From an archaeon (GTDB lineage Archaea; Iainarchaeota; Iainarchaeia; Iainarchaeales; JAAZKV01), in the NCBI GenBank assembly GCA_036170245.1, contig JAVHOV010000014.1, positions 1 through 18,596 of the forward strand: DNA of 18,596 nt, written 5' to 3'. The number at the start of each line of letters is the position of its first letter. Positions within the stretch are counted from its first letter, which is position 1. Both the position numbers and the translations under genes were made by a program. The notes below the pieces were generated by a model. The model was not told the DNA's origin and made no database searches. It was given only the letters and a program-made list of their open reading frames with translations. Of the stretch, positions 2,550-18,581 are shown one piece after another.

Positions 2550-4499
2550 TTACTGCCAAGAAAGAAGGGGATAGTTATTATCCCTTGCAATCCAATTTCC
2601 ATCAAACCCTAAATTAACAAAAGGAATTCCATTAGCTCCCTTATATGCAATTGCATTGTTATCTGTTCTAACACACCCGGCAGGATTCGGACCAGAATAA
2701 CACCACAATTTATTTGTTAGATTTACATCCCAATAATTATTACTAAATGTTCCTGCTCCCAATACATATCCACTTACTCCCCCATCAGGGTAACCTGGGC
2801 TTGTCACTAACCCAAGACTAAAAGTATTTGTCATTACACTCCCTATTACTATTTCGCCAATTAACCCCCCAATATATTCCACAGTACCAGTTACTTGCCC
2901 AACATTATAAGAAGTATATATCATAGGAGATATTCCAGATATTCCCCCAACATAACTTCTGCCTGTTATTGATCCTAAATTATAAGTATTTCTTATCAAA
3001 GCATTCTCTGAATACCCTAAAATACCACCCACATAATCTGTGCCGGTTACTGATCCAGAGTTAAATGAACTCCTTATAGAAATTGAATTATTAGAGTAAC
3101 CAACTATTCCACCAACATTAGTTATTCCAATTATTGATCCTGAGTTTGAAGAATTCGAAATTAAATCTCCTGACCCATACCCACAAATACCGCCAACGTA
3201 AGTTACTCCTTCTGCCGACCCTAAATTAAAAGAATCTAAAATTGTTCCATGAAATGTATCCCCACAAATACCCCCAACATTAGTCGCTCCTCTAATTGAA
3301 CCATTACTAGAAGAATTTATTATTCGACCCATATACAAACTTCCAGCTATTCCCGCAACATAATCTTTCCCAATAATATTTTGATCTACTAAATTGACAT
3401 TTTGAATTAGAGTCCCGCCGGTTTCCCCAAATAAGCCCACCTCTGTTTGAGTTGGCCTATTAATAAATAAATTTGAAATCATATAATTGCCCCCATTAAA
3501 AGTCCCCGAAAAAGGTTGATAATTACTAGTACACCCTCTTCCACAACTAGGACCAATATATCCAATCGGACCAAATCCTAACCCCCCATTCCACAATCTT
3601 CCGCTTGAATTATTTGTATCAGCACCGCAATCAATATCATTCATTTGCACGTATTTTCCAGCTAAATTTAAGTTCATGTCTTGTAATTCCAAACAAGTAG
3701 TTATCTCAAAAGTATTTGAATCAACATCCAAACTCAAAGGGGAGGAAGTCCCTCTATTTGAACTTGTATCAATACATGAAACATTCCAATCAACATACTT
3801 GTCGGTAGCAAAATTATATCTTACAGTATTTAATCCGTTAACAATATTTGTATATACATTTGAATCACTTCCAATATTAAGAGTACAAGAATTAACCCCT
3901 TTAGCTTCAGTAACATCAAAAACAAAATCAACTACTTTACTTGAAACATTCCCTGTAGGGGAACTCAAAGTAACAACAGGAGCAATATTATCAATAGGGC
4001 TAATAACAATATTTTCATTAACGGCTATTGCATCATTTACACATTGTGCATTGATTGTACGTATTTCAGTTTTTATTATTCCGCTTGCAGTTAAATATTC
4101 AATCTTTAATTCGCACTTAACACTTTTCTGCCCGCTGACACAAGGACAAGGGGAACTTAAACCACTCAAACTAAATCCTTTAGAATCAAGTCCAACCAAA
4201 GTAGTGTCATAACTATTGTCAACATTTCCAACACTAATCTTTTTGAGGGTAATAGAATCACTAGAATTATTACTAAACTTAATCAAAGAATCCCCATTAG
4301 GGTCAATAACAGATTCAACTATACTAATTTCGCCAACAGCAACCTCTCCTGTTTTAGAAGAAGAACCAGTTATCTCTTGACTAGGTGAAGAAAAAACTCC
4401 AGTAACCAACCCAACAACAACTAAAGCAATAACAACAACCGCCAAAATAACCAAATACTCAATCGTACCTTGCCCAAATTTATCAGTTGAATGAGACAT
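2550..4499 (-). CDS. Class III signal-peptide surface protein with Ig-like segment and GLUG-type repeats (adhesin-like)
   Basis: FGQGTIEYLVILAVVVIALVVVGLV signal; DNIAPVVTLSSP Ig-like start; ITTCLELQDM...YVQMNDID motif; repeated G(S/T)xxGxxxVGG(I/L)xG units; C-terminal NYPLLSWQ. Confidence 0.85.
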   Translation of the reverse strand: MSHSTDKFGQGTIEYLVILAVVVIALVVVGLVTGVFSSPSQEITGSSSKTGEVAVGEISIVESVIDPNGDSLIKFSNNSSDSITLKKISVGNVDNSYDTTLVGLDSKGFSLSGLSSPCPCVSGQKSVKCELKIEYLTASGIIKTEIRTINAQCVNDAIAVNENIVISPIDNIAPVVTLSSPTGNVSSKVVDFVFDVTEAKGVNSCTLNIGSDSNVYTNIVNGLNTVRYNFATDKYVDWNVSCIDTSSNRGTSSPLSLDVDSNTFEITTCLELQDMNLNLAGKYVQMNDIDCGADTNNSSGRLWNGGLGFGPIGYIGPSCGRGCTSNYQPFSGTFNGGNYMISNLFINRPTQTEVGLFGETGGTLIQNVNLVDQNIIGKDYVAGIAGSLYMGRIINSSSNGSIRGATNVGGICGDTFHGTILDSFNLGSAEGVTYVGGICGYGSGDLISNSSNSGSIIGITNVGGIVGYSNNSISIRSSFNSGSVTGTDYVGGILGYSENALIRNTYNLGSITGRSYVGGISGISPMIYTSYNVGQVTGTVEYIGGLIGEIVIGSVMTNTFSLGLVTSPGYPDGGVSGYVLGAGTFSNNYWDVNLTNKLWCYSGPNPAGCVRTDNNAIAYKGANGIPFVNLGFDGNWIARDNNYPLLSWQ

Positions 4500-6247: not shown

Positions 6248-6490
6248 ATGTCTTTCTTTGTTTATTTGCTAAAATGTAGGGATAATACATTCTACTGCGG
6301 GTACACTAACAATTTAGAAAAAAGAGTAAAAACCCACAACTTAGGAAAAGCAAGTAAATATACAAGGGCAAGGTTGCCAGCAAAATTAATTTATGTAGAA
6401 GATCTTTCTTCTAAATCAAATGCTTTGAAGAGAGAATATCAAATAAAACAATTATCAAGATATGAAAAAGAAGAACTAATTAAAAAATAA
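6248..6490 (+). CDS. Stand-alone GIY-YIG nuclease (UPF0213/YazA-like)
   Basis: FVYLLKCRDNTFYCGYTNNLEKRVKTHNLGKASKYTRARLP...ALKREYQIKQLSR; ATG 6248 preferred as start. Confidence 0.9.
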   Translation: MSFFVYLLKCRDNTFYCGYTNNLEKRVKTHNLGKASKYTRARLPAKLIYVEDLSSKSNALKREYQIKQLSRYEKEELIKK

Positions 6491-10672: not shown

Positions 10673-11506
10673 ATGTTTCGCTTCATGTTAGCTCCAATTG
10701 AGGATTACTCAGATTCTGCACTTAGAACTCTTTGTTTTACACATGGGGCAGATTTAACTTTCACTGAAATGGCTAGACTTGAAGGGATTGTGAGAAATAA
10801 TAAACCAACTCTTGCAAAAACTCTTTGCCTTGATTCTACTCCAGTAGAACTTCAGTTACTTGCTTCAAATGAAGAGCAATTAGAAAAGTACTTAACTAAT
10901 TTTAAAACTTTTGAAGGATTTAAGGGATTCAACTTGAACATGAGTTGCCCTAGTGCTGATATAATGAAAGCTGGCAGAGGGGCTGGAATGGTTAAGCGTT
11001 TAACCAAAGCCCAGAATTTGATTAAAATTATAAAAAAACACAATTACCCTGTTTCAATAAAAATGAGATTAGGAATGAATGCGAGTGAACAAAATTACAA
11101 AGTGTACTTGCGGTTAATTGAAGGAACTGATGCGGATTATTATATAGTTCACCCAAAACATGGGATGCAAAGAAGCGATGAGCCTGTACAAGGAAATGAG
11201 ATTTATGTAGAATGCGTTGAGGCAGCTAAGAAGAATGGAAAAATTATTATTGCAAATGGTGATTTGAATTCTGCTACAAGAATTAGAGAAGTTCAAAAAA
11301 TCGGAGTTGGAGGAGTAATGATTGCACGAGGAGTATTAAGGAACCCTGCAATTTTTGATTCTTTAAAAAACGAACTTAACTTTAATTCCCCAAACAAAAA
11401 ACTTCCTACAATTAAGGAACTAAGAAAAGAATACCTTGATTTAGCAAATTTATTTTCTTCCCCTCCAAAGTACAAAGATAATTTACTAAAATGGATGATG
11501 CAGTAA
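10673..11506 (+). CDS. dus: tRNA-dihydrouridine synthase family protein (copy 2)
   Basis: LAPI, TEM, NLNMSCP, SIKMRLG, IANGDL, GVMIARGVLRNP; clear paralog of 647..1453. Confidence 0.9.
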   Translation: MFRFMLAPIEDYSDSALRTLCFTHGADLTFTEMARLEGIVRNNKPTLAKTLCLDSTPVELQLLASNEEQLEKYLTNFKTFEGFKGFNLNMSCPSADIMKAGRGAGMVKRLTKAQNLIKIIKKHNYPVSIKMRLGMNASEQNYKVYLRLIEGTDADYYIVHPKHGMQRSDEPVQGNEIYVECVEAAKKNGKIIIANGDLNSATRIREVQKIGVGGVMIARGVLRNPAIFDSLKNELNFNSPNKKLPTIKELRKEYLDLANLFSSPPKYKDNLLKWMMQ

Positions 11507-17249: not shown

Positions 17250-17825
17250 TCACTTATTTCTTCTTTCATTTTCTTTTTCAATATCACTAATTGCTACCCC
17301 TTCTTTTGCCATTATTACAAAAAGGAAGTAAATCAAATCCGAGCATTCCCAAATTAAGTTTTCCTTATCTTTTGCAGTTATTACTTCTGCAGCTTCTTCA
17401 ATTAGTTTGCGTTTTAGGAGCAACTCATTGTTGAAGAGTTTTTTTGTGTATGAACCTTCAGGAGCACTTTTTAATCTTAAAACAATTTTATCATAAAGTG
17501 CATTAAGGCCAAATTTTTCTTTAATCCCAAAGCAACTGTACTCCCCAGTATGACATGCACAAGTCCCTTTTTGCTTCACAACGAAAAGCAAAGTATCATT
17601 GTCGCAATCTTTTTTAATTTCAACAATTTCCTGAATATTTCCTGAAGTTGCTCCTTTTTGAAACACCCCTTTCCTGCTTCTGCTATAGCTCCAAACAAAT
17701 CCAGTTTTAATAGTCTTTTCTAAACTTTCTCTGCTTGAGTAAACCAAAGAAAGCACTGTTTTGTTCTGCTCCTGAATTATAGTAGGAACTAAATTATTCA
17801 TTTTTTCAAAATCAACTTCAATCAT
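17250..17825 (-). CDS. hisIE: Bifunctional phosphoribosyl-AMP cyclohydrolase / phosphoribosyl-ATP pyrophosphatase
   Basis: YSRSR...KGATSGNIQ, DCDNDTLL, ACHTGEYSCF (HisI); GSYTKKLF...KLIEEAAEVI...WECSDLIYFLFV (HisE). ATGA overlap with the hisG stop and GGGGTGA SD. Confidence 0.95.
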   Translation of the reverse strand: MIEVDFEKMNNLVPTIIQEQNKTVLSLVYSSRESLEKTIKTGFVWSYSRSRKGVFQKGATSGNIQEIVEIKKDCDNDTLLFVVKQKGTCACHTGEYSCFGIKEKFGLNALYDKIVLRLKSAPEGSYTKKLFNNELLLKRKLIEEAAEVITAKDKENLIWECSDLIYFLFVIMAKEGVAISDIEKENERRNK

Positions 17826-18481
17826 TTTCTCACCCCCAAGAGAACTATGTCAGATTCCATTATTCTCTCAATTACCCCTAAGCCCGCTTCTCTTGCAGAT
17901 TTACCTGAATATACAATATCAATCACCAAATCACACAACCCCATTTGGTAAGCTTCTTCAGTACACCCATTCAAATACATTTTGTCAAAGGAAAATCCTT
18001 TTTGCTCAATTTCTTTTAGGAACTTTTCTGACAAGTACTTGTACTTTGAATTTATTGCAACTTTTGGCTTAGAAGATATGTCCAAGAAAAGCTGCTGCTC
18101 GCAATAAAAGCTTCGGCTTTTATTGACGCCCTGCAAACCTTTGGTTTGTATGGTTTCGGGCTTAGCAAAACCTTGTTTTGCACAAGCCAGGTTTTTAAGT
18201 TTTTTTCCAATTGGCCCTAAGAGACACAGAGTAGGTTTATTAAAAATTGCAGTTTGATCAACCCAAGGAATTTTTTCAATTACCCCAATTTGAGAAATTA
18301 CATTTTTTAGTTTGTACTCTTTGTACAAATCTTCCCCAGTGAGCCCAATTACTTTTTTTCCTTTTTGAATCATTTCTTCTACAAAAACAGGCACATCTTC
18401 AGCTCGAACTATTACTCTCTCATTAGGTAACCCTTCAAGTTCTTGGCGGTAAAGCTCAAGCCCAGAGTTTTTAGGAAGCAC
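17822..18481 (-). CDS. hisG: ATP phosphoribosyltransferase, short form without C-terminal regulatory domain; has an in-frame insertion and an uncertain 5' end
   Basis: LPKNSG, VRAEDVP, GLTGEDL, VAINSKY, LNGCTE, CDLVIDIVYSGKSAREAGL (PRPP-binding motif); overlaps the hisIE start. Confidence 0.88.
   Translation of the reverse strand: MLPKNSGLELYRQELEGLPNERVIVRAEDVPVFVEEMIQKGKKVIGLTGEDLYKEYKLKNVISQIGVIEKIPWVDQTAIFNKPTLCLLGPIGKKLKNLACAKQGFAKPETIQTKGLQGVNKSRSFYCEQQLFLDISSKPKVAINSKYKYLSEKFLKEIEQKGFSFDKMYLNGCTEEAYQMGLCDLVIDIVYSGKSAREAGLGVIERIMESDIVLLGVRK
18086..18196. repeat. In-frame multi-hairpin palindromic insertion within hisG
   Basis: Three hairpins within imperfect terminal inverted repeats; 49/111 G+C by hand count, above the flanking sequence; encodes a ~37-aa segment that does not look like HisG. 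Confidence 0.75.
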
Positions 18482-18503
18482 AAGTAAAGTACTTGGAAGT
18501 ATT

Positions 18504-18581
18504 TTAGAAATAGTATCGCTGTTGATGAACTAATGGTTCACTTGCAAGAATTGCTGTTGTATTCATTTGTTTCATTTCCAT
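18504..18581 (-). other. SD-led 25-codon ORF (MEMKQMNTTAILASEPLVHQQRYYF), out of frame with hisG: candidate true 5' part of hisG or leader
   Basis: GGTGGTGA at 18594-18587, ATG 18581, TAA 18506-18504; offset by one base from the hisG frame. Confidence 0.55.

Follow-up and report, generated by a model that had tools for sequence, protein, structure and literature searches.

Palindromic repeats inserted in frame into coding genes have been described in Rickettsia (RPE), in Wolbachia (WPE) and in Methanocaldococcus jannaschii (Suyama et al. 2005), the last being an archaeal precedent (PMC10969869, PMC2996958), and the available text on the RPE presents it as an element of about 150 bp that encodes a conserved peptide (PMC10969869). 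Among short hairpin repeats, REP dimers can be intragenic and can sit inside other palindromes, their CGTC class has no dedicated transposase (PMC3733652), and REPINs are doublets thought to be moved by RAYT (PMC3337134). The locus described here is an insert in the hisG gene of an archaeon and lies in a stretch of 18,596 nt (the window, meaning the whole stretch that was analysed), which is contig C14 of genome G000 (867 kb in 43 contigs, 86% complete, 32.6% GC). Like the palindromes of Rickettsia, Wolbachia and M. jannaschii, the repeats forming this insert are multi-copy and palindromic, lie in frame in unrelated housekeeping genes and occupy unstructured parts of proteins, the unstructured surface site having been found by AlphaFold prediction for HisG alone. 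The hisG-type units are shorter than the RPE as described (51-57 nt against about 150 bp) and are read in different frames and from either strand (inner hisG unit, outer hisG unit, kae1), so that no single conserved peptide results. The family also differs from the RPE, WPE and M. jannaschii palindromes in its self-nesting with intermediate alleles and in its span of several DPANN phyla.

The resemblance to REP, REPIN and BIME sequences lies in short hairpin doublets that are mostly extragenic, in some cases intragenic and in frame, gathered in arrays and at times placed inside other palindromes. However, the units have no GTAG or CGTC tag and start with CC and two mostly weak bases; the two partners of a unit are separated by a spacer of 1 nt and usually have different sequences, unlike those of REP dimers; and no RAYT (Y1) gene is flanked by units, the host moreover being an archaeon. 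The terminal inverted repeats and constant target-site duplication of a classical MITE are absent from the units.

Non-autonomous IS200/IS605 derivatives (PATEs) have hairpin-defined ends and insert without target duplication, and the bulge-helix-bulge is the splicing motif of archaeal introns. The units resemble the former in their hairpin ends and absence of target duplication, but they lack a fixed target of 4-5 nt and their ends are unlike those of local IS200/IS605 copies. As in archaeal introns, the inserts are structured and members of the family occur inside tRNA introns, but the coding junctions mostly lack the motif and the units are passengers inside the tRNA introns, not intron ends. 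The family works like RPE and REP dimers but departs from them in tag, length, peptide and RAYT, and through its wide distribution in DPANN archaea the phenomenon known from REP and RPE is extended to that group; our literature searches, which largely did not cover subscription papers, found no description of it in DPANN. We hold with good confidence that the hisG insert consists of two double-hairpin repeats of 51-57 nt, one nested in the other, which are likely mobile DNA acquired in two steps and likely translated as a predicted disordered loop.

The hisG insert and its alleles

The host gene and the parts of the insert are located in the window as follows.

17822..18529, - strand: reading frame of the short-form hisG (host gene), open from 18529, with the first GTG at 18481; the ORF 17822-18481 encodes 219 aa
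18082..18186: whole in-frame insert, 105 nt or 35 codons, from ortholog alignments and the empty allele L230
18082..18099, + strand: outer unit, first part, with the CCAA start, the 5' arm and loop of hairpin 1 and the first 3 nt of its 3' arm
18100..18153, - strand: inner unit, 54 nt, in the opposite orientation, interrupting the stem of hairpin 1 of the outer unit
18102..18125: hairpin 2 of the inner unit, 10 bp without a mismatch, its stem recurring almost unchanged in another copy (G000:C26:16067-16089)
18132..18150: hairpin 1 of the inner unit, from sequence and folds
18154..18186, + strand: outer unit, second part, with the remainder of hairpin 1, the GGG linker and stem 2 with the hairpin at 18165-18181

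The original prediction described a single multi-hairpin element of 111 nt (37 codons, 18086..18196) within an open hisG frame. The gene is indeed a short-form hisG (Pfam PF01634; the top Foldseek matches are ATP-PRTases), the reading frame stays open through the hairpins, and those at 18102-18125, 18132-18150 and 18165-18181 are where they had been placed. The extent had to be corrected to 105 nt, because the orthologs and the empty L230 allele keep the residues K-N-L-D, which removal of 111 nt deletes; the ends can slide by 3 nt on a short direct repeat, to 18085-18189, and the insert makes up residues about 99-133 of the 219-aa ORF. What had been seen as one element is a pair of nested units, a 51-nt outer unit on the + strand and, interrupting its first hairpin, a 54-nt unit on the - strand. 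The enclosing GCCC/GGGC pairing that had been proposed joins bases of two different units, and the imperfect terminal pairing uses host codons found in empty alleles; both are probably incidental. Besides the nested double, the earlier description had overlooked the repeating unit of about 51-57 nt and a family that reaches well beyond the lineage.

Alignment of HisG orthologs, one of the checks that had been proposed, places the stretch as an insertion: HisG is present in 17 of the 61 genomes searched, and all the aligned relatives (16/16) lack the stretch and match in two pieces flanking it. Folding on both strands and against codon controls had been proposed as well, and the 105-nt insert folds at -32.7 kcal/mol compared with -15.4 +/- 3.3 for 500 synonymous-codon resamples, none of which was as low. 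Genomic windows folding as low were 3 of 573, the hairpin region exceeds dinucleotide shuffles on either strand (z -3.7 on +, -3.3 on -), and the inner unit has a DNA folding z of about -5 and scores 37-40 bits with our models R1 and R2, whose training sets both include it. An assembly artefact is an unlikely source of the insert; the filled allele is present without a joint in 4/4 DNA assemblies, all from one study, which may have yielded this DNA, and so not independent in their support.

Three states of the hisG site were found, namely empty (L230), outer unit alone (L231) and both units (the window), L230 and L231 being the two relatives returned by a metagenome scan. L231 (80% identity) carries an uninterrupted 51-nt outer unit with its hairpin intact, in which 46/51 nt are identical to the window as against 78% in the flanks, and the sequence it lacks is exactly the 54 nt of the inner unit. 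The closing pairs of stem 2 show a compensatory change between L231 and the window. L230 (86% identity) is empty at the site. The unit boundaries were deduced before these two alleles had been seen, and the alleles match them. The structure of the insert points to gain of the outer unit and then of the inner unit, an order not fixed by the tree of L230, L231 and the window, which is unresolved (p-AU 0.46), and L230 may have lost an insert that it once had. Taken together, the three states would record stepwise growth of a protein loop from repeat DNA.

Nesting is not confined to hisG. The hisG layout recurs in a further nested copy at G000:C26:16050-16150, and in genome G015 the kae1 site holds a 108-nt unit-in-unit at the position occupied by single units elsewhere. 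When units were removed from 83 non-redundant contexts, a hairpin was restored across the junction in 23, compared with 10.0 +/- 2.8 when flanks were swapped, 6 of the 23 being near-copies from one genome. A more lenient form of this test was no better than its control (44/83, or 53%, against a control mean of 42% and maximum of 53%). The units may have a bias for hairpin-rich DNA, by which nested arrays would be built.

A family of double-hairpin units

The units share an architecture of CC, two mostly weak bases, a hairpin 1 of 7-9 bp, GG-G, and a stem 2 that bears hairpin 2 and whose last pair marks the end of the unit. They span 51-57 nt overall, in all three residue classes modulo 3, and their 5' tetramers are CCAA in 43, CCTT in 9, CTAA in 8 and CTGA in 6 of 89. 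Units ending in the reverse complement of CCAA are few (6/89), and most fold as two separate stems. Genome G000 has 23 tandem hairpin pairs, compared with 0-1 in three shuffles, and the separate loci recovered by model R2 number 23, of which 16 had served in the first training set; because both strands went into the training of R2, its match counts are roughly twice the locus counts. Across 16 members 83.6% of cells are paired as against 70.8% after shuffling, with 48 double changes as against 16, a covariation count that is partly circular since the members were picked for their hairpins. A looser hand-made descriptor was dropped as noisy (37 matches, 7-9 in shuffles). Rfam held no relevant family for the hisG insert or for 20 element loci.

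Most of the G000 loci (17/23) lie outside long ORFs, in the rRNA operon region, in or beside tRNA genes and in intergenic DNA. The six inside long ORFs are in hisG, kae1, gatE, uvrC, a truD-like gene and an ORF tail that we take to be GrpE-like. Measured against empty orthologs, the in-frame units are 54 nt in kae1, 54 in gatE, 57 in uvrC and 51 in the truD-like gene, and the aligned orthologs are empty in 3/5, 5/5, 3/3 and 5/5 cases, respectively. For sequence analysis, family members inserted in universal genes (kae1, gatE, aIF2-gamma) upset alignments, and those in long introns mask the tRNA genes.

Some of the tRNA-adjacent units have next to them a short repeat of sequence from one end of the tRNA or from its flank, at these positions.

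G000:C35:1560-1780
G000:C10:18940-19150
G000:C6:12500-12700
G000:C7:18550-18760

A tRNA-Gln(TTG) gene (G000:C21:6341-6553, - strand) contains a 140-nt intron that consists largely of nested hairpins, including one unit, and has a good bulge-helix-bulge.

Outside G000, model R1 matches 36/36 other genomes of the same family and 6/24 of other families, and R2 matches 85/151 genomes of the phylum, 46 of the genomes without a match being counted only in the total. The phylum is likely Iainarchaeota (DPANN), as 4/5 genomes titled Candidatus Iainarchaeum carry the repeat. R2 also matches 17/28 genomes titled mostly as Woese-, Pace-, Nano- and Aenigmarchaeota, which had been chosen for carrying this HisG, and the 10 inspected matches outside the phylum keep the unit architecture. 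Among relatives the number of matches per genome varies from 0 to about 50. The closed genome G051 contains near-identical units together with composites of 255-280 nt that are 93-98% identical, which argues for recent spread in that genome. Viral contigs searched with two consensus patterns gave one chance match, in a phage terminase gene, and nothing else.

Candidate in-frame copies were also seen in relatives, in a 653-aa ORF (L100), antisense in a glycosyltransferase-like ORF (L105) and in a membrane protein of G051 (L127). In a genome titled Aenigmarchaeota (G188, L334-L345), the double hairpin lies inside an element of roughly 150 nt with terminal inverted repeats, TA flanks and many near-identical copies, which presumably resembles an IS630-type MITE. 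A bare 22-nt hairpin with the same ends as this element is located beside a unit at G000:C2:51536.

Probable translation and movement, and rival explanations

The coding inserts that could be sized against empty orthologs are all stop-free multiples of three (51, 51, 54, 54, 54, 57 and 108 nt), and AlphaFold places the HisG insert in a low-confidence loop that connects helix 95-98 to strand 140-144 (pLDDT below 50-66, compared with above 90 for the core). Because of these two results, the insert probably becomes part of the HisG protein, as a surface loop predicted to be disordered, and its splicing appears unlikely from the sequences compared. A decayed copy in aIF2-gamma is likewise still in frame. 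Copies in other genes with lengths divisible by three and a loop in the predicted structure were both among the checks proposed with the original prediction, which had suggested a small structured mobile element or intron family in this lineage. The mobile family adding a peptide loop was recovered, with further in-frame copies and both empty and filled alleles; the intron alternative is poorly supported.

Third-position identity is 0.68-1.00 in the kae1 insert, compared with 0.50-0.61 in the host gene, and a neutral passenger does not predict such conservation without further assumptions. Higher third-position identity in inserts than in flanks, and differences between the window and L231 that are compensatory or fall in loops, are what would be expected if the hairpins, once inserted, were maintained by selection because the nucleic acid itself has a role, for instance in binding protein, stabilising mRNA or pausing ribosomes. 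We regard this role, which is not exclusive of nested mobile repeats, as doubtful, since each insert is absent from most relatives, the aIF2-gamma copy and the kae1 copy of genome G010 have lost stem pairs, and repeated insertion or conversion from sister copies would yield the same pattern.

The history of the kae1 site bears on mobility. The insert is present at one site in 6/33 homologs, and a single clade is rejected (p-AU 0.006, with 31 rows after two truncated ones were dropped), a pattern of repeated gain, repeated loss or recombination. In the insert-bearing clade the site begins with N, T or R, all of them insert-end residues, in 4/8 empty alleles, against 0/18 outside it (one row was unparsed, and kin are not independent), which hints at slightly imprecise losses. 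No constant target duplication was seen at kae1, gatE, uvrC or the inner hisG unit, 3-5-nt repeats occurring only at the outer hisG and truD junctions, and no fixed target motif was found, with A at -1 in 51/83 and at +1 in 46/83. An apparent sense-strand bias in G000 proved not to be general: the tRNA-intron copies are 3 sense and 4 antisense, and the coding copies also go both ways.

Under the reading of nested mobile repeats, the outer unit would have inserted first into hisG and the inner unit later into the stem of its hairpin 1. Movement of the units would depend on an enzyme supplied in trans that recognises the hairpins in single-stranded or cruciform DNA and cuts and rejoins it, an enzyme suggested by structure-fixed ends in unrelated targets without duplication. 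The most likely class would be HUH/Y1-like, as for REP doublets, although we hold this guess at somewhat under even. Of the insertions into genes, selection would then spare those that lie in tolerant loops, have no stop and are a multiple of three long, and purge the others.

No mobiliser was found: Y1, RT, GIY-YIG, DUF559 and TnpB were all without a match in the complete, element-rich G051. A Y1 transposase occurs in 6/36 genomes of the family and in 12/61 genomes overall, with its own unrelated ends and with no unit at any of the 12 loci; it was not found in G000 or G051, and most genomes searched are incomplete. Among the genes next to units, kae1 and its neighbours are the only ones whose protein families recur. 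A small stand-alone GIY-YIG nuclease gene in the window (about 6248-6490, + strand), single-copy in 43/61 relatives and not flanked by units, was considered as a mobiliser and rejected; it is not found in G051 and has a unit within about 1.5 kb at 2/30 loci. With sharp, structure-defined ends and a closed genome of young copies but no recognised transposase, the family offers a substrate and a host for asking what moves palindromic repeats. A broader view, which we advance tentatively and consider somewhat improbable, is that of a DPANN-superphylum family of self-nesting, structure-defined elements of 50-57 nt, moved by the host or by an unrecognised strand-transfer enzyme and not by a known transposase. 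These elements would prefer hairpin stems, be repeatedly gained and precisely lost at the same essential-gene sites, and form a standing source of new protein loops and long tRNA introns.

Host replication and repair could copy the units with no dedicated transposase, by template switching or gene conversion at hairpin-stalled forks, with quasi-palindrome self-correction producing the covariation. The five candidate mobiliser families not found in G051, the clustering of copies in arrays and other hairpins and the short direct repeats at the outer hisG and truD junctions fit such an origin, and CGTC-type REPs likewise have no known transposase (PMC3733652). However, the ends are placed at identical helix bases in targets that are unrelated and have no homology to the unit (kae1, gatE, uvrC), which suggests a structure-cutting enzyme, and copy number among relatives ranges from 0 to about 50 matches; we find copying by the host alone unlikely.

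Excision of the insert as an archaeal intron, by the tRNA splicing endonuclease at a bulge-helix-bulge motif, is in our view very unlikely, even though a 4-bp A-U core with 3-nt bulges can form at the outer hisG junctions, excision there would take out 105 nt precisely (51 nt in L231) and leave the empty sequence, and family members are present inside tRNA introns. The outer hisG set is the only one of six G000 coding junction sets with a full 4-bp core, and its candidate flanking pairs are 1/3 inner and 2/3 outer, compared with 2 and 3 in the tRNA-Gln intron control; kae1, gatE, uvrC, truD and the inner unit reach at most 2/4 core pairs. In L231 the hairpin of the unit itself occupies the same U-run, stop-free lengths in multiples of three would be superfluous if splicing were precise, and copies occur in both orientations.

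It is hardly credible that the units move through an RNA copy made by DGR reverse transcriptases, for although G000 has two RTs, two units adjoin DGR variable repeats and RT matches in family f1 (G000 included) occur in 6/8 genomes with 20 or more unit matches against 2/29 with fewer, a comparison confounded by kinship and assembly quality, the element-rich G051, G050 and G040 have no RT match, no element was matched in G037 and G038, which do have an RT, most DGR loci are without a unit and possess a different hairpin of their own, and both orientations relative to transcripts are found. Units following a DGR variable repeat occur in 2/14 RT loci, in opposite orientations and with empty equivalents elsewhere, and a unit as the DGR's own target hairpin was rejected, most such loci being without one. 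The two DGRs of G000 (G000:C16:20263-22950 and C30:1177-2970) show A-specific TR/VR differences, and one has a unit just past its variable repeat.

The host gene and its neighbours

HisIE is encoded next after hisG in the window. The two proteins are 82% identical to those of the closest relative found, compared with 63% identity at third codon positions, and hisG and HisIE are therefore under purifying selection. The hisG frame has no in-frame ATG, and it is overlapped by a leader that is separate from the insert and has a ribosome-binding site.

18504..18581, - strand: leader ORF of 25 codons overlapping the hisG frame, with a single His codon at 18527-18525

The single His codon sits where a +1 shift would enter the HisG frame, and 49/65 distinct homolog loci have no in-frame ATG yet carry such a His codon. 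Judging from these reading frames, the leader is a candidate +1 frameshift switch of hisG under histidine starvation; a literature search found no published description of a hisG His-codon frameshift leader. Elsewhere in the window are two ORFs for Dus-like tRNA-dihydrouridine synthases, at 422-1453 (recognised by eye) and 10673-11506 (by Pfam), and two for proteins with class III (pilin-type) signal peptides, one of them with GLUG repeats, at 2550-4499 (by annotation search) and 8-544 on the - strand (by eye).
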